From contig JAHIYU010000026.1 of assembly GCA_018814885.1 (NCBI GenBank), positions 30,079-94,078 of the forward strand: a stretch of DNA of 64,000 bases. Reading direction: 5' to 3'. The translations under genes were made by a program, and so were the position numbers. Numbering within the stretch: position 1 is the stretch's first letter; every line of letters starts with the position of its first letter. This stretch comes from a bacterium (lineage in GTDB: Bacteria; Krumholzibacteriota; Krumholzibacteriia; LZORAL124-64-63). Below the pieces are notes generated by a model, which did not search any database, was not told the DNA's origin, and saw nothing but the letters and a program-made list of their open reading frames with translations. Below, piece by piece: positions 12,095 through 26,163 of this stretch.

Positions 12095-15000
12095 TCAACG
12101 GGCGATCACCACGGGGCGCACACTCACCTCTCGGGAGCCGCCATCGTCGGCGATCAGACGGCAGATGTACACGCCCGACACGACGGACTCTACGTCCAAC
12201 AGGATCTCGACGGGGCCGCCGCGCGCCTGCACGACTGCCGAAGTCCGCACTTCCTCTCCCTCGAGATTGTACAAGTATGCCCGCACCTGGCAATCACGAT
12301 TCGCCAGCGCGCGCACGTGCAGTTCCTCGCCGGTCAGGGGTGTAGGGTAGCAGATATGGCTGCTGGATGTGAGCAGGGCTGCCCCTACCGGCGGCGCCGT
12401 CACGGCCCCAGCCGTTTCCGCACGTCGATCGGAGCCGCCCCACATGGGCCAGATCTCCACGGCGTCCGCGGTTCCCGGCAGACTCCACGCGGAGAGCCTG
12501 GAGACCGGATCCCCCGTGGGATCGCCAGAATCGTCATATCCACTGATACGCAGAATCGAGCCCACCGCCACCAATTCCAGCCCGGGCATCCCATCCAGAT
12601 CCATCAACAGCGGCGTGCCGGCGGTCTCTCCGGGACCCGCCAGCGGCCACCCGGACGCGAGCCGCCCGTCCCGATCGTACAGAAAGAGACGGCCGTCTCG
12701 CGATGCGAAGAGTGTATAGGCTCTTCCGCCGATCTGGGCCACGAGGGGCGATGGAGCACCGGCACCCCCGGTCGCCGTCACGGAGATCCGGGGCGCCACA
12801 GGCCATCCGGTGAGCGGGAAGCCACCCACGCCCGCCAAGACGAATCCAGCCTCGGCCACATAGCCGAGGCCCGGAGCCAGCGGCGAGGTCACGCCGGCCC
12901 ATTCCGGCCAGGCCTCGACCCCGGCAGCTTGGGGGCCATCCCAGATCATGGCGCCGCCAGTGATGGCAGGGATGATCAGAACGTCTTGTCCCGCAAACAT
13001 CAATACGCCGGAAGGTTGTCCGGGAAGCTCTACGAAACTGTCATTTTCACAATCTGCCAGGCGCCAGACGGCATCCACATCATCATACACGGGCAGCAAT
13101 GTGAGTCCACGCCAGCGGGTGGGAGGTGAGACCGCCTCGAGACCGGTGTCCGTCAGGATGTGGATCTCTTCTTCTGCCAGGTTCCAGTAGTGCAGACGCA
13201 GCCGCCCGTCCACATCCCGGCGTTCGACGATGATGGCCACATCCCTCTCCGCAGCCGAGAGCGCCATCGGGACCACGACGGTCGGTTGGCTGCAATGCTC
13301 CAGGGGCAGCACCAGCCCGTAGCTGGCGCCGTCCGCGTCGCCGTCGATCATTTCGCTGCCGTCCTCGCCGTTGAACGCGTACAACCCGGAATCCGCCGTC
13401 AACAATATTTCCGGCAGGCCGTCGAGATCGAGATCGCCCACGGCCGCCGGACCGTTCCAGCTCACGGGCTCCCCGCCCGGCCCCTTGCCCACGGCGAACA
13501 GGCCGGTCAGGGGTGAGCCTTCGCGGAAGCTCTCGAGATCATGATCGAACGCGAAGACGCGTCCCCTATCTCCCGTGGCCACGATCTCCAGCACGCCGTC
13601 CCCGGAACAGTCAAGGTCGACGGCCAGCAGGTGCGAACCGCGCAGGTCGACGTCATTCAACTGGAGAGTGGCCACGGGTTCGGGCGCGCCGCTGGCGGTC
13701 ACGTCCGTCCGACGGCACCGGAAGGTCATGGAGCCCGCGTACCGGATCACGGTATCCCCTGAGAATGGAACCACATATGCCGAATCGGCCACCACGTTGC
13801 TGATCATGTCGATGAGGATGCCGGTGGGGACGCCGCCCGACGTATCGGTCGAGGGAGAGGTCTCGGGGCCGAAGACACTGGAGTCCTCCCCCCGGAAACT
13901 GTCGTAGTCGGCACCGAGCACCCACGCCGAGGGGATCCGGCGGTCGAGATCCTGGATGCCATCGGCTTCCTCCAGATCCACCGACTTGCGAGCCGGGTCG
14001 GCGTTGAAGATGTTCTGTTCAGAGAGGAAAGCGGCCTGGATCACACCCTCGTCGATGTGCCAGATGTACAGACCGCTGCCGGCCCCCTTTGCGCCGTCCA
14101 TGCGAGCGTCGTTTTCGCTCATGAAGAAATCGAATTCCGCCCCGAAGAGCCATTCGCGTTCGTCGTGCTCCGGGTCGTACCAGCTCGTGGGAGTTCCGTC
14201 GCGGTAAATCGAGTCAGCGTCGTAGAAGTCGGGTATGTTGTTGCCGTTCAGGTCGCCCGGGAATGAGAAGATTCCGTTGCCGTCCGGATCCTGCTTGCGG
14301 TATTCTAGCAGCCAGTATTCGCTCGGTCCGATCTCGACGCGCGCCAGCGCCGAATCCGCGGCAGCGTGTTCTGCGGGATACAGCCGGAAGAAGCCGTCGG
14401 CGTCCGGATCGATTGTGTAGGGGTCCAGCCAGCCCATGAGCATCTTGTTGAAGGCGCAGGGATGGGCCGGGATGAAGCCGGCCCCGACGAACAGACCATA
14501 CCCCATCAGGCCGAACTCCCCGATGCCCTGGCTGTCGGGATGGCCGGACGGCGTGAAATCGCTCAGCGACAGCATACCCAGGCGCAGTCCCACCTCGAAG
14601 CAATAGACGCCGAGGGAGCCGAAATAGCCGCCGACACTGGCCACCGAGTCCTGGAACTCGTTTTCCGGCAGGACCAGCACCTGGTCTATGGTCACGGGCT
14701 CCCCGCCGGCGTACGCGTCGCCCGTGGGCAGCCACGGGTCGGGTATGATGTCCTCGTCCCTTGCCTCCGCGAATGCCTCCAGTCCCAGGTAGCTGCTGTA
14801 GATCTGCTCGGGCGAGTCACCGAGAATGTCGGTTTCCTCGCCGGCTCCGGCGTGAATCAGGACCACCGTGTCGAAGCGCGAGAAATCGACCTCACCGTCC
14901 AGCAAGGTGACAGCGTCCAAGGCCATTAGCACCTTCTGCTCCCCTAGTTCGGGATGATTCCCGTACCAGTTCATCGGATGAGGCAGGTTCGCCACGTTAC

Positions 15001-15492
15001 CGGCAACTTCGAAGGCGAAGGTGAAATGTCCCCCGCTGACGACATCGAAATAGGCCTGCACGTCGGTCATCTGGTGTTGATAGTAAGTCGAGTCGTGGGC
15101 CAGATAATAGAAATCGCTCTGGGCGGGGGGGGGAAATCTCCGGAGACCTGTCCATACCTGCCATAGAACAAACTGTCGGCGAAATCGCACATCAACACGA
15201 CTGCGAACAGGCTGTCGGGCGCTGCGTGGCCAGCCATACGGGCGGCCTGCAAGGACCGCGATCCTTCCTCCATCAGACGTCGCGCGCTCGCGCTCAGAGC
15301 CGGCTGGGCGTGCACGGACCAGGTTTGCCCAGGTCCGAGAGCGGCTGCTCGCGAACCGTCGGGTCTCGACGGGGGCCCGGCCGCGGCATGGACCGCGCAT
15401 ATGGCCAGCGACAGCCCCCACAACGCAACGGCGAACGCCGCCCGTCGGCATGCCGACGGGATGGCACCTCGGGCCTCGTCCCGGGTCAGCAT
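12095..15492 (-). CDS. Secreted M6/InhA-like protein with FG-GAP/VCBS-like repeats and T9SS-like CTD; frameshifted at a C9 tract; zinc motif degenerate
   Basis: Signal peptide and VVLMCDFAD in one frame (track ORF 15067..15510). The rest (YFDVVSGG, IHAGAGEE, EYWLLEYR, GLYIWHIDE, DLEEADG, GDLDLDGLPEI, YPTP..SGVY) is in another frame (12095..15451). The junction is at 15125-15133. Confidence 0.8.
15125..15133 (-). repeat. C9 homopolymer at the frameshift junction
   Basis: Plus strand c-GGGGGGGGG-aaa. C10 or C7 would join GDF-PP(P)-AQSDF in frame. Confidence 0.85.
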
Positions 15493-15552
15493 GGACTCTC
15501 CACCTTTCAAGATCGGGGAGCGAAAACCGGATCAGCGCCGCTGGATACGTGC

Positions 15553-15581
15553 ATAATAGGCTCCCGCTCCGGGAGCGTCAA
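15553..15581 (-). promoter_or_regulatory. Putative sigma70 promoter for the M6-like/porV operon
   Basis: Minus strand TTGACG-N17-TATTAT about 60 nt upstream of ATG 15492. Confidence 0.65.
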
Positions 15582-15817
15582 TCGACGCCTAGGCACCGCC
15601 ACTCACGAATCGCCGGGGAAACGATGGCAGTGGAGCTGGAGATCTAACGCCGCCACCCCTGATTGGCATTGTCTTCACTCCCGCTCCACTGCATCTCGTC
15701 GGTGATCGGCCGCTGACCGGATCGGCTGCCCGTTCCCGCTCGGTGCCAACCTCTTCAAGGATCAGGTCCTTTCCGGCCAGCCAGCGATGGGGGGATTGAT
15801 CACTCGACTCCCTGCCG

Positions 15818-17602
15818 CTAGCGCTTTGCGCCGCGGTTTGAACTTGACCTGCCGCCACCCTTGCCGCGCGGCGACGATGAGGAGCCGGAGCCTTGGCTGC
15901 GTGTCGAGCCGTCACTCTTGCTCCCGCTGTTGGACTTGGGCTTCACCGATGAGGGTGAGCGTTCGTTCGGCGTATTGCCGCCCTCCGGCTTTGCCGTCTG
16001 AGGCTTGCGCGTCGGGGTCTTATCGCCATCGGATCGTGGTTTGGCCTCCGGTGCCTTGCGTGTCGGTTCGTCATTTCCTGGGCGAGGCTTGACGGTACGC
16101 GCAGGCTTCTGGTCGCGGCTGCCACCTTGCCAGATCCGCGAACCCTGAGTGTGGGGCTTGACAGGGCGCACGGCGCGGACGTCGTTCACCTGGGGTGCGG
16201 TCCGGGTGCCGGGCGACACGCGAATGGGCTGCTGGCCTTCGGAGGCATCGGGTCGCACGGGACGGGCATCCTCCCGGCCGTCGCGGCCTGTGGCGGGGTT
16301 GGGCCTCACTGCGGGCCCGTCGGTGCTGTTGCGACCGACGCCGCTCGGCATCCTGATACCCGGCGCCCGCTCGTCGCGGGGCTGCTTAGTGAAACCGGCG
16401 ACCGGCTTCACGGCTCGGCCGGTGTCCTTGAACTCGCGGCGTGCGTCCACTCTCTGGTCGGACCTGCCGAGTTCCTGCTTGCGGATCGCCTCCTTGCGGT
16501 TCATGGACGCCACCATGTCCTTGGTGGGACGCGGCGTCTTCACGATCGCACCAGGATGTTCGTAGTCTCGTTCACCTTGGTTGTCTGCGTACCGGTGGTT
16601 CTTGACGATCGGCCGGTAACGCTGGCGGCCTTCCTTGTATCTGACCCAGACATCCCCGCGCCAGTACGGCGAGTAGTTCCAGACGTAGCAGTCGAAATCC
16701 CAGACGGAATACCCCCACGTAGGCCAGGCGTACCAGGGCCGGTACCAGTAGTTGATCCACGGGCGCCAGGTCCAGGGATCCACGTAGTAGTAGACGGGGT
16801 AGTAGTAGGCGGGGTAATACTGGTAGCGGCCGTACCAGTCGTTATCCCAGCTGTAATCGTGATGGATCTCGATCAAGCAAGTATCGCTGTAGGGCTGGTA
16901 ACTGCTGTCGTCGTGGCACTGCGTGCACATGTAACGGGGGTAATCGACCTTGCGGTGCACATAGTAGCTCAGATAGTTGGTCACCACGTAGTCGGAAGGA
17001 TCCTCGAGCCCGGTCACGGCGTAGTTGACGTCGTTCATGGCCAGGAATGGATCGCCAGCCACGTAATAACCTTGCTCCTCTTGCCCGCTTTCGTGGTGGA
17101 AATCCACCTCCAGGTTACGCAGGTCGAAGGGGTAGGCGGAAACGAGAACCTGCACATATTCTACACCTTCCGTGCCGGCGGTCCTGATGCGTTCGGCGCC
17201 CGGTGTTGGCAGGTTGTATGTGTGATTGCCGAAGACGAAACCGTCGTCGTAGCGGCTTCGCGGCCAGAGTATGGACACCAAGCCTTCGGCATCGATACGA
17301 TACACCACGGCATAGGCGTCGCTGTTGGCCTCGAAATGGATGCGAACGGCCTCCCCGCGCTGGTAAATCTCGTCGTCCCCGCGATCGTGCCAGATGTTCA
17401 CACGGTAGGGCTGGTTCTCGAACCCGTTCCAGCCGTCCGACATGGCGGGTGTCCCTTCGGCAGGCTGGGCCCTGGCCGTAGCGAAGCCCACCGCGAGAGC
17501 CAGTGCGATCAACACTGACATCGCCACGCGCAGCCCCGGACTGGGCTGGGACGATGTTGCTCCGCAGGCCGGCTTGAAGTTCATCACTCGTTTCGTCTTC
17601 AT
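15818..17602 (-). CDS. Secreted DUF4384-domain protein with CxxCH, Trp/Tyr-rich middle and disordered basic tail
   Basis: Signal peptide (ALAVGFATARA), DUF4384-like YQRGEAVRIHFEANSDAYAVVYRIDAEG..ILWP, CTQCH, YYPAYYYPVYYY, P/K/R/S-rich C-terminus. Confidence 0.75.
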   Translation of the reverse strand: MKTKRVMNFKPACGATSSQPSPGLRVAMSVLIALALAVGFATARAQPAEGTPAMSDGWNGFENQPYRVNIWHDRGDDEIYQRGEAVRIHFEANSDAYAVVYRIDAEGLVSILWPRSRYDDGFVFGNHTYNLPTPGAERIRTAGTEGVEYVQVLVSAYPFDLRNLEVDFHHESGQEEQGYYVAGDPFLAMNDVNYAVTGLEDPSDYVVTNYLSYYVHRKVDYPRYMCTQCHDDSSYQPYSDTCLIEIHHDYSWDNDWYGRYQYYPAYYYPVYYYVDPWTWRPWINYWYRPWYAWPTWGYSVWDFDCYVWNYSPYWRGDVWVRYKEGRQRYRPIVKNHRYADNQGERDYEHPGAIVKTPRPTKDMVASMNRKEAIRKQELGRSDQRVDARREFKDTGRAVKPVAGFTKQPRDERAPGIRMPSGVGRNSTDGPAVRPNPATGRDGREDARPVRPDASEGQQPIRVSPGTRTAPQVNDVRAVRPVKPHTQGSRIWQGGSRDQKPARTVKPRPGNDEPTRKAPEAKPRSDGDKTPTRKPQTAKPEGGNTPNERSPSSVKPKSNSGSKSDGSTRSQGSGSSSSPRGKGGGRSSSNRGAKR

Positions 17603-17638
17603 GGCCGTACCTCCTGGTCCGGACCTTGGAATCGCCCC

Positions 17639-18556
17639 TTAGAAGCGAACGATCTCGTCTTTTCTGGCGCCACCGGATTCCCTATCGGCTCGCACCTTCA
17701 GTTCCCTGTTGAAATTGTCGATCTGGTAGGCCCAGTCCACGTCTACGTAGTTTTCTTCCTCGGCGTACACATAGAACTTGGCGTAATGCACGTTCGTATC
17801 AGGATCTTCCGTGATCTTGACGATGTAGGAATGCCCCTCGATCAATTCGGCCCGACCCGCGTTGGAATATCCCGAATCGGGAGCGTAATCGACATAGTCC
17901 AGGGGTATCGTACCGTAATCCTGGAGATGCACGATGTCCGGTCGCGCGGCGATCACGAAGGGGACGCCCTCCGCGAAGGCGACATAGATGTCTGCAGTGG
18001 GCGCGTCCCAGGCCATGCGACCGTCAGCCAGCCGGCTGAAGTCGAAACCGCTGCGATCGGGATGAGCGCCGTACCTGTCATATAGCAGAAGTTCGTACCC
18101 GGCCGGACGGGGCGTATCCACGACCGTTTCGAAGCTCAGCGTGCTCTCGTTGCCACTTTCGTCGAAAGCCAGCACGGCATAGTAATAGGTCTCGCCGTTC
18201 ACGACATCCTCATCGTCAAACCAGTGCAGAAGCGTCTGCTCGTCGAAATTCTCGTCCCAGGCCACATCGCCCAGCCAGTAGTAGGCACCGTAGACGGGAT
18301 TGTTTCCGTCATGGCGGTAGACGGCATAGCCGATCAGGTCGAGCTCGTATATGTCGTTCCAGTACACCGAGACAACTTCGTCGCCGGTCACAGTGAATAC
18401 CCCGGTCGGCACCGCTGGCGGATCATCGTCGATGTACGTCACATCCTCGTCGCAACCCAGCATGGCCACCGAGAAGATCAGGACTGTCATGAGCCCCATG
18501 AATCTGCCCAGACCGGCACCAAGATGCCTGGTGTGTACTGGATGATTGGTTCCCAT
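17639..18556 (-). CDS. Lipoprotein with FN3-like domain and an uncharacterised (possibly HmuY-like) C-terminal beta domain
   Basis: Lipobox AMLG-C, PPAVPTG..VYW..YAVYR..GETYYYAVLAFD..GNES FN3 pattern, then GFDF..GHSYIVK..YAKF..DWAYQ. SD GGGAGG. Confidence 0.7.
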   Translation of the reverse strand: MGTNHPVHTRHLGAGLGRFMGLMTVLIFSVAMLGCDEDVTYIDDDPPAVPTGVFTVTGDEVVSVYWNDIYELDLIGYAVYRHDGNNPVYGAYYWLGDVAWDENFDEQTLLHWFDDEDVVNGETYYYAVLAFDESGNESTLSFETVVDTPRPAGYELLLYDRYGAHPDRSGFDFSRLADGRMAWDAPTADIYVAFAEGVPFVIAARPDIVHLQDYGTIPLDYVDYAPDSGYSNAGRAELIEGHSYIVKITEDPDTNVHYAKFYVYAEEENYVDVDWAYQIDNFNRELKVRADRESGGARKDEIVRF

Positions 18557-18606
18557 GATTCACCTCCCGTCTGGTTCAGCAGTCAGGTATTCCTGATTCC
18601 CTATTA

Positions 18607-18622
18607 CGCACGGGACGTGCCA
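18607..18622 (-). promoter_or_regulatory. Putative sigma54 (-24/-12) promoter for the lipoprotein-DUF4384 operon
   Basis: Minus strand TGGCACGTCCCGTGCG with GG and GC 10 nt apart, about 50 nt upstream of ATG 18556. Confidence 0.65.
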
Positions 18623-18892
18623 ACAGGCAGACCGAGCCTCTCGCAGACGTCGAACAGCCGTCCGGTATGTACGTTCCTGGCCGTATCTCCTTTATTTACC
18701 GGGGAATTCAGGGGGTATACCACGTGCCACGATTGGCAATTGGCAAGGGAACTCCAGAATCGCTTACGGGAGCGGAGAGATCATATGTCTCTCCTGATGA
18801 TCAACCGATCCCCGAATGAGGACGGTGCGGCACGAGGCACGGGTCCCCTAGTCGATTCCCGCATATCGGCTCCGTTGCGTCCATCGGCGGTC

Positions 18893-19221
18893 GATAAGAG
18901 AAAGAAAGAGCCTCCAGCCCGCCATCGGGCTGCCCGGTCCTGAGTCTCGCCACATCAGGATCGGGGTGGCTCTTTCTTCTCAATCATGATCTTGTAGAAC
19001 GGATATTCGGAAGGGAAAGGATTCACAGCTTTCTCCACTCGGTGTGCGGATCGGCCTGGACCCCACATCCAGATCAACTCGACACGAGTCTCATCGTTGA
19101 AAACTCCCCTCATACAGCCGGTTGTTGATGAGGGCGTGAATCCGTTCCCCTTTCCGGGTTCCTTGATGAATCAATGGGTCGGTGCAAGTCCATCCCTGCA
19201 ACTGCTCCCACCCTCTTTCGA
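18893..19221 (-). ncRNA. Candidate sigma54-dependent small RNA (GGA-rich 5' part, three-way junction and U-rich 3' end)
   Basis: No credible ORF. Begins ~12 nt downstream of the -12 element at 19233, has 8 GGA motifs in 19105-19208, and ends in a multi-stem structure at 18902-18978 followed by CUCUUUCUUUCUCUU. Confidence 0.4.
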
Positions 19222-19231
19222 GAGCAATCAT

Positions 19232-19247
19232 TGCAGGCCGCATGCCA
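19232..19247 (-). promoter_or_regulatory. Putative sigma54 (-24/-12) promoter directly downstream of the TPR activator
   Basis: Minus strand TGGCATGCGGCCTGCA with GG-N10-GC spacing, close to consensus TGGCACGNNNNTTGCW. Confidence 0.6.
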
Positions 19248-19385
19248 ACGTCCTACTTGGCAGTAACTTTGTAACTGACTTTCTCCATTGAGATTACAGA
19301 CGCAATCCCGCCAGCTCGTATGACAAGGCCATGACCATGGGCAATAGAGTTCGCATCTGTACCATCGATATCATAACTTCCTTCA

Positions 19386-19398
19386 AATCAACATGTTG
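19386..19398 (+). promoter_or_regulatory. IHF-like site in an AT-rich tract
   Basis: AATCAACATGTTG matches WATCAANNNNTTR. 19381-19440 has only 19/60 G+C. Confidence 0.35.
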
Positions 19399-19455
19399 TG
19401 ATATAAATATATTTTACACCCACTCAGGGTAAGATAACAGGAATTGCCATATGGG

Positions 19456-22400
19456 TCAGGAGTTGTCGAGGCCGTAGACACGGACCTTCTTTAGCAGATT
19501 CGGGTAGCTGATCCCCAGCAGACGAGATGCTTCAGCCTTGTTTCCGCCCGTGTGTTCGAGGGTCCGCATGATCTCTCGGGCCTCGACCGCGCCGATGGTT
19601 TCGCGCAAGGGGGAAATCGCGCGCGCGCCATCGCCGTCGGGAAGAGATCTTGTGACCTCGGGAGGCAGATGTGATATGCGCAACATGGGCTCGCCATGGG
19701 CGAGCACGATGGCTCGGTTGATCGATTTGACCAGTTCGCGGACGTTGCCAGGCCAGTCATGCTGCGCCAGGGCCTCCATGAAGGAGGAGGTGCAGCCGGG
19801 AGTCTCGATCCTCGTTAGCGCGACATAGCGGGCTATGAAGTGCGTGGCCAGCAAAGGAATGTCATCCTGGCGGTCGCGCAGGGGGGGGACAACAACCGGG
19901 AAATCGAGCAATCTGTAGTACAGATCCTCTAGATAAGTGCCACATCCGACTTTCTCCTTCAGATCGCTCTTCGTGGCGCAGACGATCCGCACATCCACAA
20001 CGCGGCTACGATTGGACCCCACCGGCCTCACCGTATGCGTATCGATGAAGTGAAGGAGCTTGCCCTGCATGCCCAGCGGCAGTTTCCCGATTTCGTCCAG
20101 GAACACTGTGCCGCCCGCGGCCTCGGCGAGCAGACCCGTCTTGTCAGCGATAGCGCCTGTGAAACTGCCCTTCACATGTCCGAAGAGTTCGCTTTCGAGC
20201 AGCGATTCGGGGATGGCCGCGCAATTGATGGCGAGGAACTTCCGGTCCCTTCGCTCGCTGAGCCTATGGATGGCATGGGCCAGCAGCCCCTTGCCGGTCC
20301 CTGTCTCGCCTTGCAGCAGCACCGTCAACTCGCTCGCAGCTACCTTGCGAATCAGGACCAGCATTTCCCGCATCTCGGCATTGCGGGTGATGATCTGGGA
20401 GAAGGCCTCGTGCCTGTCGCTCTCATCCCAGGAGACGGCGACCGGCCTGTTGCGTTCCTCCTCCGCGAGCGACATGGCAAGATAACCAGCCGCCGCGGCC
20501 ATGTGGTCGAGTACGGGTTTCAGAGCCAGACCATCGTCTTCGTCCCTGGTGCGTGACCCCAGGCAGAGCACGCCGTAGCATTTATCCGGCACGGCCACGG
20601 GCAGGAACAGGCATGAATTGCAGTTGGATGCCAGGCCGGGCACTTCCTCCAGGACATCCTGGGCCAGATCGGTGCGCGTCAAAAGTCGGGGTGTAGGAAC
20701 TTCATCCACGCGCGTCTCCGTAAACCAGAACGCCGCCTGATGTGCCACAGGGCGTGAGAGTCCTCTGGTCACGATCCTGGCGCCACCGCCAACAGGTGCC
20801 GCCCAGGGTTCGAGGACGACAAATCCCATGTCCGCCGAGGCGCGCGACATGCACGAATCAAGGAAAGTGGCCAGGGTATCTTCGGTGATCGAGCCATTTT
20901 TCAGCGATATGACAGGCGCTACCGGAACCTTCATCTCAATGGATGGCCATGCGCCGACCAGGGCCTTTTCGATGCGAATGCGCAGATCGCCGTGCCGTGA
21001 AAGCAGATCCGGATCGTCAACGTTCTCAGCGGCGCGTTCGAACTCGCTGGCCGTCAACAACGCTTCGTCCAGGTCGCCGAGCCGCAGCAGCACCTCGGCC
21101 AACCCGGCTTGCAGGCGGCAATAGAGGAGATCGTCTGCCCGGGATTGGGCACCTTCGAGAGCATCGTGGAGACTGCGGCGCAGACGCAGCAACTGACTGC
21201 GGCCTCCGCGTTCCAGGCTGAAGTCGAGGCTGGCCAGGATGGCTCTCGATGCGAGCCGCGGCAAACGCTGAGAATTGAAAATCTTGATCGCCCCGCGGAA
21301 ATGATCGTCGGCTTGATCGTCTTCACCGAGATTGGCCAAGGCTTCGGCCAGGGCCAGATAGCAGAATCCGAGTTCGTAATCCTCTCCACAACTCTGGCAA
21401 ACAGTGATGGCAGCCCGGGCGAATTCGGCCGCCTGCAGCCAATCGCTCGCCTGGAGGCTGGCCTCGGCGCAACGGCGCAGCAATTCGCCTTCGAGATCGG
21501 TGAGCGTGTTGATGCGTTTGGTCTTCTCGAGGCCGAGGCCGTAATTGTAAAGGGCCTTCTCGCTTTCTCCGCGCTCGAGCAGCAGATCACCCATGTACTC
21601 GTCGGCAATTATCGATTCGCGCATGAAGCCGGCTTCATCGGAGATGTGCTTGCCGGTGAGGATGAGTTCCTCGGCGCGCAACAGATGGCCCTCTATGAGT
21701 TCCAGTTGACCGAGCGCCAGGCTGGCCTTGGCCTGACGGTCCATATCCCCGAGACTGACGGCAAGACGCAAGCTCTTCTCGAAGGCCGCGCGCGCCTCGC
21801 CCGGAGATTCGGCCTTGCGCAGGATGATGCCTTCGTTCAGGTGCAAGCGGGCCAGCAGGTGGGACGCGCCATGCTCGCTGGCCAAGGCGATGGAGCGGTT
21901 CTGGTACTCCATTGCCTTGTCCCAGCGACACGCGTTCTTGTGTACCAAGGCAAGGTTGTTGTAGAGGGAGGCCATACCGAGTTCATCGCTGATACGACGG
22001 AAAGTCGCCAGGGCGTCGGTGTAGAATTCCTCGGCTTTGTCGAGTCGGCCAAGCCGATGATGACAGACACCCATGGTGACCTGGAGGTTGGCCACTTCGA
22101 CGTGATCGTCGGTGACGGCCAGTACTGCGAACGCACGTTTGCATATCTGCAAGGCGTCCTTGTATGCGCCACGCTGCGTGTAGAGGGCGGCGTGGCGTCC
22201 CAGGAGCGGTGCTATCAACAGCCGTTCATCGGCCGGGTCGAGGTTCTCGACGGTCGCTATGAAGCCATCGGCATCATGCAGCAATCGCTCGGCCAAGGCG
22301 AGGTCACCCAAATTGAGCGCCGCATCTATACTCTTGCGGCAGATCTCCAGGATATGAGAGACCTCGAGCTGGTTCAGGGCCGCGGAGGCGAGGATGCGCT

Positions 22401-22557
22401 GGTAATAGTCCAGGGAAGTCGAGAAGGCCGAGGCTTCGAAGTGCAGATCACCCACTTCCTCGAGGCGCACGAGAGCGGCAAGATCCGCGGGCACGCCATG
22501 CCTCATGGATTCAGTTTCGTCTTGTCGTCGTCTTTCAAACTGGTGATCCATCGACAT
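19456..22557 (-). CDS. TPR-GAF-sigma54 AAA+-Fis HTH transcriptional activator (bEBP without receiver domain)
   Basis: ~500 aa of TPR-like helices (e.g. MGVCHHRLGRLDKAEEFYTDAL, LYNNLALVHKNACRWDKAMEYQ), a GAF-like segment, GETGTGKGLLA, ESELFGHVKGSFTGA, FLDEIG, WPGNVREL and GNKAEASRLLGISYPNL. Start 22551-22596. Confidence 0.92.
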   Translation of the reverse strand: MSMDHQFERRRQDETESMRHGVPADLAALVRLEEVGDLHFEASAFSTSLDYYQRILASAALNQLEVSHILEICRKSIDAALNLGDLALAERLLHDADGFIATVENLDPADERLLIAPLLGRHAALYTQRGAYKDALQICKRAFAVLAVTDDHVEVANLQVTMGVCHHRLGRLDKAEEFYTDALATFRRISDELGMASLYNNLALVHKNACRWDKAMEYQNRSIALASEHGASHLLARLHLNEGIILRKAESPGEARAAFEKSLRLAVSLGDMDRQAKASLALGQLELIEGHLLRAEELILTGKHISDEAGFMRESIIADEYMGDLLLERGESEKALYNYGLGLEKTKRINTLTDLEGELLRRCAEASLQASDWLQAAEFARAAITVCQSCGEDYELGFCYLALAEALANLGEDDQADDHFRGAIKIFNSQRLPRLASRAILASLDFSLERGGRSQLLRLRRSLHDALEGAQSRADDLLYCRLQAGLAEVLLRLGDLDEALLTASEFERAAENVDDPDLLSRHGDLRIRIEKALVGAWPSIEMKVPVAPVISLKNGSITEDTLATFLDSCMSRASADMGFVVLEPWAAPVGGGARIVTRGLSRPVAHQAAFWFTETRVDEVPTPRLLTRTDLAQDVLEEVPGLASNCNSCLFLPVAVPDKCYGVLCLGSRTRDEDDGLALKPVLDHMAAAAGYLAMSLAEEERNRPVAVSWDESDRHEAFSQIITRNAEMREMLVLIRKVAASELTVLLQGETGTGKGLLAHAIHRLSERRDRKFLAINCAAIPESLLESELFGHVKGSFTGAIADKTGLLAEAAGGTVFLDEIGKLPLGMQGKLLHFIDTHTVRPVGSNRSRVVDVRIVCATKSDLKEKVGCGTYLEDLYYRLLDFPVVVPPLRDRQDDIPLLATHFIARYVALTRIETPGCTSSFMEALAQHDWPGNVRELVKSINRAIVLAHGEPMLRISHLPPEVTRSLPDGDGARAISPLRETIGAVEAREIMRTLEHTGGNKAEASRLLGISYPNLLKKVRVYGLDNS

Positions 22558-22640
22558 TGTCCCCCGGCGAGAAGGCGGGCAATTCGACTCGGTCACGACT
22601 CCTGAAGGCTGGGCCTGATCCGGCGCTCAAATGGAGGCAA

Positions 22641-22970
22641 TCAGATCAGACCCTGATACAACAGCATCGTCAATAGCGCGAGCCACTGGTCAAAATCGGC
22701 TTCATTCAGATCTGGTACCCCCGCAAGGGCAGAGAGATCGAAAGTATCGCCTGTTGCACCATTGTTCCGGTTTCCGGTGATGGCGTCATCGGGATCGCCC
22801 AGGCACTCGAATTCATCACCCGGTACGACATTCTGGGGAGAGTTCGTGGCTGGTGAATCCTCTTGAAGCATGATGTCCTGAGCAGACGCTGCCGCTCTGG
22901 CGATACCGGGACCGGTCGATACCGCTGCCAGGGTCAGGAGCAGGCTTAAACTGATAAGTGCTCTTTTCAT
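22641..22970 (-). CDS. Small secreted acidic protein (109 aa), candidate signalling-peptide precursor
   Basis: SD GGAG, Sec signal MKRALISLSLLLTLAAVSTGPGIARA, acidic middle with CLGDPDD, hydrophobic end FDQWLALLTMLLYQGLI. Confidence 0.7.
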   Translation of the reverse strand: MKRALISLSLLLTLAAVSTGPGIARAAASAQDIMLQEDSPATNSPQNVVPGDEFECLGDPDDAITGNRNNGATGDTFDLSALAGVPDLNEADFDQWLALLTMLLYQGLI

Positions 22971-23077
22971 GATCCCACTCCACATTCTCGAGATCGGGGC
23001 GGCTGTTTCCCCGAAATAGGTGTTCAAGACGAACACGCAGGACGAACCGCATGTCACCTCAAGTCCTTACCCCTTAT

Positions 23078-23106
23078 ATTCTATGGGTGTTTTGGATATC
23101 TGTCAA
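23078..23106 (-). promoter_or_regulatory. Near-consensus sigma70 promoter for the small-protein/TPR-activator operon
   Basis: Minus strand TTGACA-N17-TAGAAT. Confidence 0.8.
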
Positions 23107-23121
23107 TAGACCGGGGGCTAT

Positions 23122-24483
23122 TCATTCGCCAGCCTGGGTCTGCAGCCCATATTTGCTGATCTTCTTGTACAGGTTGCTGCGTTGCATACCGAGCTGTTCG
23201 GCGGTGCGGCTGACATTGAAGCGGTTCTCGCGCAGTTTAGCCTGTAGGTACATCGATTCGGAACGAGCCTTGAACTCCTGGAAATCGGTGCAGCTCATCC
23301 AGTCCCACTCTCCAGCCCTGGTCTCGGGTCCGCTGCCTGATAGGACGGGCAGATCCTTCGGTCTGATCAGATCGCCAGGGACGAGAATCATCAGCCTTTC
23401 CACGAGATTGCGCAGTTCGCGCACGTTACCGGGCCAGGCATAGGTGCGAAGCAGGGCGAGTGTCTCCGCCGTGAAGGTCTTCGGCTTCTTTTTGAGCTGG
23501 ACCGCCATCGCGGACATGAAATGCTCCAGCAGAAGACTCACGTCCCCTCCCCTCTCACGCAGGGGGGGCAGTTCGACGGACAGCACGTTCAAACGGAAAT
23601 ACAGGTCCTGGCGGAAATTGGCTGCGGGACCGGTGAGGTCTCGGTTGGTTGCGGCCACGATCCGTACATCGACCTGACGCGCTTCGCGACCACCGACACG
23701 CTCGAAGCGGCTCTCCTCCACGGCCTTGAGCACCTTCGCCTGGGCTTCCTCGCTCATGTCGCCGATCTCGTCGAGGAACAGCGTGCCACCGTCGGCCTGT
23801 TCGAACTTTCCCACGCGCATCTTATCTGCCCCGGTAAAGCTGCCTTTCTCGTGGCCGAACAGCTCGCTCTCGACGAGTTCGCGCGGAATGGCCGCGCAAT
23901 TGACCTCTACGAGAGGCATGTCCCGACGAGGACTGCCGGCATGGAGGGCCCGTACCACCAGCTCCTTGCCCGTTCCATTCTCGCCGGTGATCAGGACGGT
24001 CGCAGCGGTAGGTGCGACGCTGTCGATGAAATCGCGGACCTCGCGGATACGCGCGCATTCTCCGATCAACGGCTTGTTGTAGCCGCTGCGATCGCGCAGA
24101 TCCTCTGTCTGCCCGCGCAGGCCGAAGTGATCGAGGCAGTTCTGGAGGGTCAGCAGCAGACGCGACCTGTCAAGCGGCTTCTCGAGAAAATCGTAGGCGC
24201 CCTTACGAACGGCCTCCACGGCGGTCTCGACGTTGCCGTGGCCGGAGACCACGATGACGGGGACCTCGAACCCGGCGTCGGTCATCCTCTCCAGGACCTC
24301 GAAACCGTCCATGTCGGCCATCTTGATGTCCAGCAGCATTACATCGATCCTCTTGTCCGCGAGGATCGCCAGGGCTGCGGCGCCATTGGCGGCCAGCTGC
24401 ACCGCGTATTGCTCGTAGGTCAGCAGCTGCTCGAGCGTCTGCCGGATCGCGGCTTCGTCGTCTACGACCAGGATCGTGCGCAA
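23122..24483 (-). CDS. NtrC/NtrX-family sigma54-dependent response regulator
   Basis: ILVVDDE, LLDIKM receiver; GENGTGKELV, ESELFGHEKGSFTGA, WPGNVRELRN; Fis HTH. Confidence 0.93.
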   Translation of the reverse strand: MRTILVVDDEAAIRQTLEQLLTYEQYAVQLAANGAAALAILADKRIDVMLLDIKMADMDGFEVLERMTDAGFEVPVIVVSGHGNVETAVEAVRKGAYDFLEKPLDRSRLLLTLQNCLDHFGLRGQTEDLRDRSGYNKPLIGECARIREVRDFIDSVAPTAATVLITGENGTGKELVVRALHAGSPRRDMPLVEVNCAAIPRELVESELFGHEKGSFTGADKMRVGKFEQADGGTLFLDEIGDMSEEAQAKVLKAVEESRFERVGGREARQVDVRIVAATNRDLTGPAANFRQDLYFRLNVLSVELPPLRERGGDVSLLLEHFMSAMAVQLKKKPKTFTAETLALLRTYAWPGNVRELRNLVERLMILVPGDLIRPKDLPVLSGSGPETRAGEWDWMSCTDFQEFKARSESMYLQAKLRENRFNVSRTAEQLGMQRSNLYKKISKYGLQTQAGE

Positions 24484-24659
24484 GAATGTCCCTCCCGGAC
24501 TTCAGAGCTTCTTGCCCCGGGATCGATGATGATATACCTCTGTGGTCACCCGGTCACACCATGGGCAGTCCATCACGCCGGTGTCAAGAGGTGATGCGCG
24601 AACGGTGCCCGGCGCCAGCCGGCCTCTTGACTGCCCGACTCCCTCAGCCCGGAGGCGCG

Positions 24660-25730
24660 ATGTACGGGGATGCGAGGCCACTCATGCGGGACGTGCCCGT
24701 CGCGGAGCTGCGGAGCCTGATGAAAGCCAGGCGCGAACCGGAGTATCGCGGCGACCAGCTGGCGCGTTGGCTGTACCGGGATGCCGTATGGCACTGGGAC
24801 GACATGCGCAATCTGCCCCGACACCTGCGCGACGGTCTCGCGGAGGATCACGATCTGCAGGGTCTGCACCCTGCCGAGCACCAAGTCTCCCGGGACGGGA
24901 CACGCAAGTACCTCTACACTCTGCGCGACGACCACCGGATCGAGAGCGTGATCATCCCCATGGAGTCGCACGCCACCTTCTGCATCTCCTCGCAGGTGGG
25001 CTGCGGCATGGCGTGCAGCTTCTGCGCCACGGCGCGCGGTGGTCTCGTCCGCAACCTGAGCTCCGGCGAGATCATCGAACAGGTCCTGCGCCTCGCCGAC
25101 GACCTGCGAACCGAGCCCCGGCAAGTGCTCGGCGACCGTGGCTACAACATCGTTTTCATGGGTATGGGCGAGCCTCTGGACAACCTGGACGCCGTCGAAT
25201 CTGCCATCGCGACCTTCGTGAACGGACAAGGACTGGCCATGTCTCCCCGGCGGATAACCATCTCCACCTCCGGCCACGTCGAGGGACTGATGCGCCTCAT
25301 CTCGTCGGCGATGACCGTCGGTCTGACGATATCGGTGAACAGCAGCCGACCGGAGCTGAGGCGCAGATTGATGCCCGTACCCGGGCGCACGCCGCTGGCC
25401 GAGACCCTGGAACTCGCCGAACGATACGCCCAGACGAGGCACCGCAGGGTGACCATCGCCTATGTGCTCATGGATGGCATCAACGATGGCGACGGCGAAG
25501 CGTCGGCCCTGGCGCGAATCCTGGCGGGGCGGCCTTTCAAGGTCAATCTCATCCCCATGAACCGCATCGACGGGAAGCAGGGGCCGCCACCGGCCGAGCG
25601 AGTCCTCGGTTTCCAGGCCAGACTACGCGATGAAGGTGTGGAGGCATACGTGAGGATCAGCGGTGGAGACGACATCGCGGCCGCCTGCGGTCAGCTGCGT
25701 GACAAGCGCGGCCACGAAAAGAAACTCTGA
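24660..25730 (+). CDS. rlmN: Dual-specificity rRNA/tRNA methyltransferase RlmN (radical SAM)
   Basis: SRDGTRKYL, CISSQVGCGMACSFCATA, FMGMGEP, VNLIPMN, DIAAACGQL. SD GGAGG before ATG 24660. Confidence 0.94.
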   Translation: MYGDARPLMRDVPVAELRSLMKARREPEYRGDQLARWLYRDAVWHWDDMRNLPRHLRDGLAEDHDLQGLHPAEHQVSRDGTRKYLYTLRDDHRIESVIIPMESHATFCISSQVGCGMACSFCATARGGLVRNLSSGEIIEQVLRLADDLRTEPRQVLGDRGYNIVFMGMGEPLDNLDAVESAIATFVNGQGLAMSPRRITISTSGHVEGLMRLISSAMTVGLTISVNSSRPELRRRLMPVPGRTPLAETLELAERYAQTRHRRVTIAYVLMDGINDGDGEASALARILAGRPFKVNLIPMNRIDGKQGPPPAERVLGFQARLRDEGVEAYVRISGGDDIAAACGQLRDKRGHEKKL

Positions 25731-25764
25731 TTCGGCAAGGCCAGGCCCGATCATCTGACGGCGC

Positions 25765-26163
25765 CTAGATCAGATCCTGCAGGGTGGTCTCCTCGAGGGC
25801 CTTCGTCATGGAGGCCTGGGCGGTTGCCCATACCTTGCTCACCTTGCATTCGCTGGTTCGGTCGCAGGTATTGATTTTGCGCAGGCAGTGGTTCAAGGCG
25901 ATACCGCCTTCACAGATCTCGACGATCTCGCGCAAGGAGATCTTGTCCTTATCCCGGCCAAGCGAAAAGCCGCCCTTAACGCCTCGGTGGGATTTGACGA
26001 CATTGTGTTGCGAGAGCATCTGAAAGATCTTGGCCAGGAACGCTTCCGACACGTCGCAGGCTTCGGCAAGCGTCTTCAAGCGGATGGGAGTGCCGTTTCC
26101 CCTTTCCGCAAGTTCCAGCAGGCCCCTGATGGCATACTCAGTCTGGCGCGTGATCTGCAACAT
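25765..26163 (-). CDS. Rrf2 family transcriptional regulator with Cys ligands
   Basis: QTEYAIRGL, FLAKIFQML, VKSHRGVKGGFSL, CLRKINTCDRTSEC. Confidence 0.9.
   Translation of the reverse strand: MLQITRQTEYAIRGLLELAERGNGTPIRLKTLAEACDVSEAFLAKIFQMLSQHNVVKSHRGVKGGFSLGRDKDKISLREIVEICEGGIALNHCLRKINTCDRTSECKVSKVWATAQASMTKALEETTLQDLI

Follow-up and report, generated by a model that had tools for sequence, protein, structure and literature searches.

What could a small, apparently secreted protein do when its gene stands directly in front of that of a cytoplasmic transcription activator with a long tetratricopeptide repeat (TPR) sensor? The question is raised by an open reading frame (ORF) of 109 amino acids (aa) in a 64,000-nucleotide (nt) stretch of DNA from an uncultured member of the Krumholzibacteriota (assembly GCA_018814885.1, contig JAHIYU010000026.1, positions 30,079 to 94,078), which we refer to in its entirety as the window. 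The ORF, at positions 22641 to 22970, precedes a TPR-GAF-sigma-54 activator gene on the same strand. Sequence comparisons indicate that its product defines an unannotated family, present throughout one uncultured phylum, and we tentatively read it as an exported signal precursor or co-sensor of the TPR activator, arranged according to a logic that resembles that of the RRNPP peptide-receptor systems without making it a member of them.

Evidence that the small ORF is a gene

Because the GC-rich window is full of meaningless ORFs of this size (dozens of spurious ones), the existence of the small ORF proves nothing on its own. We nevertheless regard it as a true gene that is under selection at the protein level and has a predicted strong promoter, on the combined evidence of that conserved promoter, a GGAG ribosome-binding element, homologues, synonymous variation within its most conserved segment, and its dN/dS ratio. 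A near-consensus sigma-70-type promoter, TTGACA-17-TAGAAT, lies ~100 nt 5' of the gene in the window, and 15/15 distinct orthologous loci keep the same motif, 131 to 148 nt ahead of the ATG. The translation start context ([GT]GGAG[TA]G/[TCA]GGG.. followed by ATG) is likewise kept in the 15 loci, and a G/C-rich hairpin comparable to that in the 5' untranslated region (UTR) of the window's gene is visible by reading in most of the 15 orthologous leaders, most clearly in g1 and its close relatives. Within the segment GDPDDAITGNR, hereafter the core, third-position synonymous variation is present at 11/11 positions among the 15 distinct orthologues, and the sole amino acid change is A to L at the sixth position of one sequence. 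For the gene overall, dN/dS is 0.27-0.62, which indicates purifying selection that acts mainly on a few segments of a protein that otherwise evolves fast. An alternative, GTG-initiated form of 138 aa is not conserved.

At its other end, the gene runs into a stable RNA hairpin (-25 kcal/mol; z = -3.1) that spans the stop codon; hairpins of differing sequence occur at the same place in three other folded loci and, on visual inspection, in most of the 15. This structure may be a 3'-end stabilizer or a partial terminator that uncouples expression of the small gene from that of the activator. Together, the gene's own strong predicted promoter and this hairpin suggest that the small gene is expressed well above the activator, a situation that fits a product made in excess over its regulator.

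Features of the predicted product

The N terminus of the small protein, MKRALISLSLLLTLAAVSTGPGIARA followed by AASAQD, consists of a basic n-region, a 14-residue h-region, and A-x-A at positions -3/-1, and our assignment of the protein to the Sec pathway is a prediction from such features (n-region, h-region, and small-x-small site). A basic n-region and hydrophobic h-region recur in 54/54 sequences collected from genomes and in 81/82 further database members, and a small-x-small (AxA-like) cleavage site is present in most of the 54. The mature part (83 aa) contains 15 Asp and Glu residues and 1 Lys or Arg, for an isoelectric point of ~4 or below; G, N, D, E, P, S, T, Q, and A make up 69% of its residues, and its single Cys falls directly before the core (FECLGDPDD). 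AlphaFold2, supplied with the family alignment, returns a mean confidence (pLDDT) of 59 and orders two helices only, that of the signal peptide and one near the C terminus (residues 93-106). The protein is thus modeled as exported and intrinsically disordered, with one short linear motif and one helix, and one short, strongly conserved motif surrounded by rapidly changing disordered sequence is what a linear motif for binding or processing would be expected to look like.

Searches of Pfam, NCBIfam (E<=1), and PDB profiles with the small protein return zero relatives, and all database members that bear any name are called "hypothetical protein." Several functions that its composition might evoke were considered and rejected. 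A role for the Cys in a disulfide or thioether is ruled out by the confinement of this residue to one subclade, and a precursor of a ribosomally synthesized and posttranslationally modified peptide by the Sec signal on the protein and the identity of the sole radical-SAM neighbor, the housekeeping enzyme RlmN. Asp-Pro autocleavage is ruled out as a universal mechanism by the replacement of Pro with Ala in families f5 to f9. An RTX-type calcium repeat, considered for the GDPGGAGDGLG variants of the core, does not fit the GGxGxD register and would be present in a single copy only.

A small-protein family throughout the phylum

Our sample of the phylum comprised 208 species genomes from one class and nine families, including 125 high-quality genomes. 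Related metagenome-assembled genomes (MAGs) carry NCBI labels that disagree (Fibrobacteraceae, Latescibacterota, Gemmatimonas, and "bacterium"), yet their neighboring proteins are 50-75% identical, indicating that the differently labeled MAGs form one lineage; two database members of the small-protein family are labeled Candidatus Krumholzibacteria. Public homologues of the small protein range from 97 to 131 aa.

A profile built from close relatives finds the small protein in 34 genomes of the phylum, a count that marks the limit of sensitivity rather than absence, because the "negative" genomes carry an equivalent ORF upstream of the activator. Within the same family, an ORF of 99-115 aa with a signal peptide stands directly 5' of the activator in 20/20 profile-negative genomes, and the same holds for 19/20 genomes from the other eight families. 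Overall, a 91-117-aa signal-peptide ORF directly precedes a ~1030-aa TPR-GAF-sigma-54 activator at 39/40 fetched loci, representing 9 families. At the exceptional locus (L045, genome G026), the signal peptide and the core are in different frames; at another (L015, from a long-read assembly), the small ORF lacks its N terminus. Both disruptions are probably assembly indels rather than true losses. A second profile, derived from 34 of the sequences collected in this way and searched against 5.8 billion proteins, retrieved 94 clusters, and both the core and the hydrophobic tail are present in 82/82 new database members.

The proteins differ remarkably little in length, and the core begins between residues 44 and 73 in all 54 collected sequences and between residues 54 and 73 in 53/54. 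Positions invariant among close relatives are those of the signal peptide core, 10/11 of GDPDD[A/L]ITGNR, and a C-terminal GLI; among 18 sequences that reach down to 32% identity, 10/11 core residues never vary, and the sixth is A in 17 and L in 1. Across the phylum, the core consensus reduces to G-D-[PA]-[DG]-[DGE]-x3-G, with variants GDPGGAGDGLG, GDPDELGGGFR, GDPGDAGDGYG, GDADDYANGRG, and GDADGLSGLK. The second phylum-wide element is an amphipathic segment of ~14 residues with many Leu, Trp, Phe, and Met residues and, in many cases, Arg, Gln, or Glu. In 46/54 collected sequences, the 14-mer with the best interfacial hydrophobicity is found no more than 14 residues from the C terminus. In families f5 to f7 (7/7 members; loci L047 to L052 and L058), an amphipathic aromatic helix is placed between the signal peptide and a GDADD core, and the C terminus is polar. 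This permutation, together with the short length and internal charges of the helix, argues against a transmembrane anchor, a C-terminal recognition tag of the MucE-like, beta-signal-like, or sorting-signal kind, and a C-terminal arrest motif; the segment would suit a tether at an interface or a helix that makes hydrophobic contacts.

An earlier, sequence-only reading of the locus had described a 109-aa acidic protein with a GDPDD core, one Cys, and an ~83-aa mature product released by cleavage between ARA and A, all of which agree with the translation of the ORF. It had also taken the protein to be secreted, of low complexity, and not an enzyme, which accords with the Sec signal features and the zero matches to known families, and had named the GDPDD core and the hydrophobic tail as candidates for the active segment; these are the segments that alignment of the syntenic ORFs finds conserved. 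Conservation in synteny is evident, and profile searches match no known family. The Cys is present as described and is not a conserved feature, being limited to one subclade. The suggestion that the tail is a membrane anchor did not hold up, given its ~14 residues, the R, D, Q, or E inside it in many relatives, and its nonterminal position in families f5 to f7; we regard it as an interfacial amphipathic helix at most.

Duplicated pairs of small gene and activator

Two genomes carry a second copy of the pair. Genome G110 encodes, on the same 2.1-Mb contig, a second activator that is 46% identical over its full length. An ORF located ~75 nt 5' of it encodes 97 aa that include a signal peptide, the core GDPHDLGGGFR, and the tail ISLITRLILLLMRSV; its product is an exact match to a database protein called by NCBI and labeled Candidatus Krumholzibacteria. 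The neighbors of this second cassette (G110:C1:2051665-2053752 and upstream; L067) are a gene for a Big_5/GH16-like secreted protein and two M16 peptidase genes, and both the response regulator and the envelope operon that accompany the canonical cassette (see below) are absent. A search for sigma-54 promoters near the second cassette of G110 found nothing above chance. Genome G178 has one contig with the canonical response regulator, small gene, and activator and a second contig (C80; L069) with a small gene (GDADGLGGIK...WWKFLVWLK) and an activator, without the response regulator; because this contig terminates inside the activator, the statement applies to the upstream side only. Within G110 and within G178, the paralogous small proteins differ at two core residues and far more in the tail.

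Since the two second cassettes occur in differing contexts without the response regulator, the pair behaves as a unit: the small gene travels with the TPR activator and not with the response regulator or, in G110, with the envelope genes. The link to the TPR activator proposed in the sequence-only reading thus gains independent support from the two duplications.

The activator, nearby sigma-54 promoter-like sites, and the surrounding locus

Among the high-quality genomes of the phylum, 124/125 encode the activator's sensor part, usually once. An AlphaFold2 model of residues 1-706 (pLDDT 84) shows ~13 TPR helix pairs (26-534), a linker, and a GAF domain (559-700); the C-terminal part consists of the sigma-54 AAA+ module followed by a Fis-type helix-turn-helix (HTH_8), and a receiver domain and a membrane segment are both absent. 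In Foldseek searches with this model, the TPR superhelices of LGN/Pins and O-GlcNAc-transferase (OGT) rank first, and these superhelices enclose extended, disordered peptide segments. By phmmer, the activator has weak similarity to NprR and RapF (E values of 4e-4 to 6e-3).

Immediately before the activator start codon is an element, GAGTCGAATTGCCCGCCTTCTCGCCGGGGGACA, that is near-identical at the DNA level in 8 loci and recognizable in the remaining 7. In at least one locus (L012), an extra T breaks the frame, and the element is therefore not coding; it may serve as an operator, as a target of a small RNA, or in translational control; because it precedes a conserved ATG-TCG-ATG-GAT, we place the start of the activator at 22557 and not at the GTG at 22596. 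Duplexes between this element and the region of the putative downstream small RNA, computed with RNAduplex, are no better than those of shuffled sequences (38/300 as good).

The gene order in the window is rrf2, rlmN (on the opposite strand), an NtrC-type response regulator, the small gene, and the TPR activator, followed by ~0.9 kb without a called gene and then genes for a 305-aa lipoprotein, a DUF4384 protein, and an M6-like protein of ~1120 aa (Table 1). The whole arrangement recurs, up to the depth of the phylum, and different families share the whole block that begins with the response regulator and ends with the M6-like gene. The genes for the 305-aa lipoprotein, the DUF4384 protein, and the ~1120-aa protein are kept together across most families. 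The sigma-54 promoter-like pattern TGGCAY-N6-TGC has just two matches in the 64-kb window, both within the 0.9-kb gap after the activator and both directed toward the lipoprotein operon, and the length of this gap (~800-1000 nt) is conserved among the loci examined. An Rfam search of positions 15000-26000 detected zero known RNA families.

Table 1. Positions in the window of the small gene, its predicted elements, and neighboring features
Feature	Position	Strand	Basis or remark
Coding sequence of the 109-aa small protein (P0001)	22641..22970	-	Translation, homologues, and codon evidence
Predicted Sec signal peptide, residues 1-26, cleavage between ARA and A	22893..22970	-	Sequence features
Core GDPDDAITGNR, residues 58-68	22767..22799	-	Alignment
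C-terminal hydrophobic/amphipathic helix FDQWLALLTMLLYQGLI, residues 93-109	22644..22694	-	AlphaFold2 and alignment
Predicted sigma-70-type promoter TTGACA-17-TAGAAT	23078..23106	-	11/12 consensus matches
5'-UTR hairpin CGGGG-loop-CCCCG	22995..23013	-	~25-45 nt ahead of the start codon
Shine-Dalgarno element GGAG	22978..22981	-	Sequence reading
Stable RNA hairpin over the small-gene stop codon, no U-tract	22611..22653	-	Folding
Conserved noncoding leader element GAGTCGAATTGCCCGCCTTCTCGCCGGGGGACA	22558..22590	-	Immediately 5' of the activator start codon
TPR(x13)-GAF-AAA+(sigma54)-HTH activator, 1033 aa	19456..22557	-	Domain searches; start revised to ATG 22557 (MSMDHQ...)
Sigma-54 promoter-like TGGCAT-N6-TGC	19233..19247	-	Motif match
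Sigma-54 promoter-like TGGCAC-N6-TGC	18608..18622	-	~50 nt 5' of the 305-aa lipoprotein gene
305-aa lipoprotein	17639-18556	-	Lipobox VAMLGC before D, then FN3-like segment (GYAVYR...YYYAVLAFDESGNES)
NtrC-type response regulator (REC-AAA+-HTH), orphan	23122..24483	-	Domain searches

A tentative model

How might an exported protein inform a cytoplasmic activator? After cleavage of its signal peptide, the small protein would be tethered to the membrane surface through the amphipathic helix, where periplasmic or extracellular proteolysis would free a short fragment consisting of the core, the tail, or both. The fragment would be taken up, for example, through an Opp-type permease of the kind present phylum-wide, and would bind to the inner groove of the TPR superhelix with its 13 repeats, thereby switching the AAA+ domain. 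The activator would in turn switch the two predicted sigma-54 promoters downstream and, with them, a putative small RNA and the envelope operon of lipoprotein, DUF4384, and M6-like genes. Such a circuit could be a "private" periplasm-to-cytoplasm loop that reports envelope proteolysis or could convey a signal between cells, and we consider these equally possible.

We give the reading of the small protein as a signal precursor or co-sensor of the activator somewhat less than an even chance of being correct. The features that it needs (a Sec signal, gene adjacency, TPRs, and an Opp-type protein) are in place and are unspecific. An Opp/Dpp-type binding protein is encoded in 124/125 high-quality genomes of the phylum and, because Opp-type proteins are common elsewhere in bacteria (11/14 control genomes), lends the reading weak support. 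Adjacency of the small gene to the activator is also a weak argument, because gene order is broadly frozen in this phylum, with rlmN and rrf2 kept as well.

Several observations weigh against this reading. The main problem is a mismatch of compartments, the small protein being exported and the activator cytoplasmic, and the cassette encodes neither a processing protease nor a dedicated importer. RRNPP peptides diversify rapidly into pherotypes, but the core stays invariant in several genera; within genomes, the paralogs diverge more in the tail than in the core, so that either element could confer specificity. The host is diderm, and a ~1-kDa peptide would need a route through the outer membrane in order to act between cells. 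RRNPP receptors are not within the Foldseek top 50 for the activator model. Finally, the argument from duplication rests on two events, one of them in a MAG (G178) with 3% contamination.

A bolder version would specify the whole circuit: a ~10-residue G-D-[PA]-D-D...G peptide that is processed, reimported, and clamped in the TPR superhelix, where it switches sigma-54 transcription of the small RNA and the envelope operon as a phylum-wide core circuit. It would be the first peptide-sensing enhancer-binding protein and the first RRNPP-like cassette outside Gram-positive bacteria. That all of these parts hold at once seems to us doubtful.

Alternative explanations

We rank the candidate readings as follows: signal precursor, periplasmic accessory protein, membrane-active peptide, export-coupled regulator, and leader ORF. 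The second of these, which we judge unlikely, is that the small protein is a membrane-tethered periplasmic accessory comparable to ZraP, CpxP, or small connector proteins; it would make no direct contact with the TPRs and would act on a sensor encoded elsewhere (such as the histidine kinase that partners with the response regulator) or on proteins of the envelope operon. This view is free of the compartment problem, and it would suit an exported protein whose interfacial helix can be permuted in position, as expected of a tether, and whose gene lies between two sigma-54 regulators in the conserved block that extends from the response regulator to the M6-like gene. What counts against it is that the second cassettes of G110 and G178 retain the small gene and the activator without the response regulator, G110 also without the envelope operon, that no histidine kinase is encoded on the contig (40 HATPase_c matches in the genome, none on the window's contig), and that similarity to CpxP, Spy, or ZraP is zero.

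Less probable again is a nonregulatory role, in which the small protein would be the precursor of an envelope- or membrane-active peptide, made up of a signal peptide, an acidic pro-region, and an amphipathic Trp- and Arg-rich tail, whose position next to the activator is a matter of frozen gene order. The tails in families f2, f4, f8, and f9 are indeed cationic, Trp-rich amphipathic helices, and unrelated housekeeping genes are equally syntenic. Yet it is the acidic core, not the tail, that is best conserved; the gene is a single-copy core gene at essentially all checked loci rather than part of a variable locus with immunity or export genes, and it has twice been duplicated together with the activator.

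The compartment problem would also be solved, with no need of an importer, if the TPR domain bound the precursor in the cytoplasm and Sec export removed it, such that the activator reports the state of export or of the membrane by the logic of FlgM or ExsE, here acting through Sec. Extended, unfolded chains are ligands of long TPR superhelices, close relatives share an unusually well conserved signal peptide, and sigma-54 activators govern membrane-stress responses, PspF being an example. However, conservation of the signal peptide is gone at the family level, Sec export is fast and constitutive and would leave a tiny cytoplasmic pool, and the strong constitutive promoter would go unexplained. 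We know of no precedent for a Sec-exported anti-activator and place this reading below the preceding two, as improbable.

Last and very improbable is a cis-acting leader ORF whose translation, rather than its product, controls the activator by arrest or attenuation in the manner of SecM, VemP, and MifM: although the small ORF is upstream of and codirectional with the activator, includes a signal peptide as Sec-monitoring leaders do, and is followed by the stop-codon hairpin and the conserved leader element before the activator start, the strongest selection falls on an 11-residue motif that lies 41 residues from the C terminus, the tail sequence is unconserved and missing from the C terminus in f5 to f7, there is no C-terminal arrest motif, and the downstream gene, which is 80-140 nt away and has its own ribosome-binding site, encodes a transcription activator and not a protein-localization factor.

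Comparison with known systems

Returning to the reading of the small protein as an exported signal or co-sensor, its closest counterparts are the RRNPP systems, which are defined by a propeptide of 10-100 aa, Sec secretion, a receptor of 250-500 aa, peptide-binding TPRs, and neighboring genes (PMC10075063). Secretion (predicted) and adjacency (39/40 loci plus the two duplicated cassettes) correspond; the propeptide, at 109 aa here and 91-117 aa phylum-wide, is at or just above the upper bound, the TPRs show weak sequence similarity to NprR and RapF but are led by LGN/OGT-type superhelices in the Foldseek ranking, and the activator, at 1033 aa, falls outside the range for receptors. With this receptor length and a host outside the Bacillota, the cassette is RRNPP-like at most and not a member. 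As in the pairs Rap-Phr, NprR-NprX, PlcR-PapR, and AimR-AimP, a small precursor with a Sec signal is encoded next to a cytoplasmic TPR protein that regulates transcription, both genes are duplicated together, and a short segment is conserved in an otherwise variable precursor. The receptor, however, combines its TPRs with GAF, sigma-54 AAA+, and Fis-type HTH domains, where RRNPP receptors are HTH or phosphatase proteins, and its TPR fold is nearer to superhelices of the LGN/OGT type than to RRNPP receptors; moreover, the precursor gene is upstream, the host is diderm and outside the Bacillota, and the core has not diversified into pherotypes.

The sequence-only reading had drawn its analogy to SHP/Rgg and ComS/ComR, with which the present cassette shares a hydrophobic, Trp-containing C-terminal segment and a neighboring TPR receptor. 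Membership in these systems does not stand, since the precursors SHP and ComS have fewer than 35 aa and leave the cell through PptAB, with no Sec signal peptide (PMC10075063). The protein described here has 109 aa and a classic Sec signal, and its tail is dispensable at the C terminus in three families.

Other resemblances are more partial. In cyanobacteria, the RGSGR motif of PatS/PatX is read by the receptor HetR after transfer through septal junctions. Here, too, a diderm phylum has kept a short motif that resides on a small protein and is read by a cytoplasmic transcription factor, and in PatX the motif similarly follows a hydrophobic N-terminal region; the system differs in its motif, in the fold of HetR, which is not a TPR fold, in its use of septal junctions rather than Sec export, and in not involving sigma-54. 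In Vibrio, LuxO is controlled by a phosphorelay from membrane receptors of small-molecule autoinducers. The LuxO-Qrr system parallels the present locus in that sigma-54 activators are found beside a putative sigma-54-driven small RNA and could integrate an extracellular signal; LuxO has neither a TPR sensor nor an adjacent exported protein. ZraP, CpxP, and Spy are comparable insofar as a small exported protein is encoded beside a sigma-54 response regulator (with ZraR-like scores), but they are folded, helical LTxxQ proteins, whereas the small protein is predicted to be disordered, has no Pfam or NCBIfam match, and belongs to a cassette that can exist without the response regulator.

Three further comparisons were rejected. 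An arrest peptide of the SecM/VemP/MifM type is precluded by the lack of a C-terminal arrest motif and of a downstream protein-localization gene. An activator of a PDZ protease of the MucE type, with a WVF-like tripeptide, is contradicted by the invariance of GLI in close relatives only; other members end in VR, SI, AP, IF, or YR or are without a hydrophobic tail. A sorting signal of the PEP-CTERM type, which would comprise a signature motif, a transmembrane helix, and a terminal basic cluster, has no NCBIfam match to support it, and the tail is only ~14 residues long, with the conserved motif 35-50 residues upstream of it. A full-text literature search found nothing relevant on "GDPDD"; for TPRs in combination with an enhancer-binding protein and sigma-54, it found only papers on PEP-CTERM and Chlamydia and no precedent, and none was found for an exported small protein that accompanies an enhancer-binding protein with a TPR sensor.

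Implications

Signaling by genetically encoded peptides through cytoplasmic TPR receptors is considered characteristic of the Bacillota, and sigma-54 activators are, to our knowledge, known to sense phosphorylation, small molecules, and partner proteins but not peptides. We view the cassette as a variant of the logic that couples an encoded peptide to a TPR receptor, and the small-protein family is new to annotation. If the model is true, it would extend peptide signaling to a diderm candidate phylum and would add a new type of input for enhancer-binding proteins. The uncultured Krumholzibacteria would at the same time gain a testable circuit, with a candidate ligand of 10-11 residues, a candidate receptor domain, and two candidate promoters. 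Even if the signaling model is wrong, the locus defines a new family of small proteins that are currently annotated as "hypothetical."

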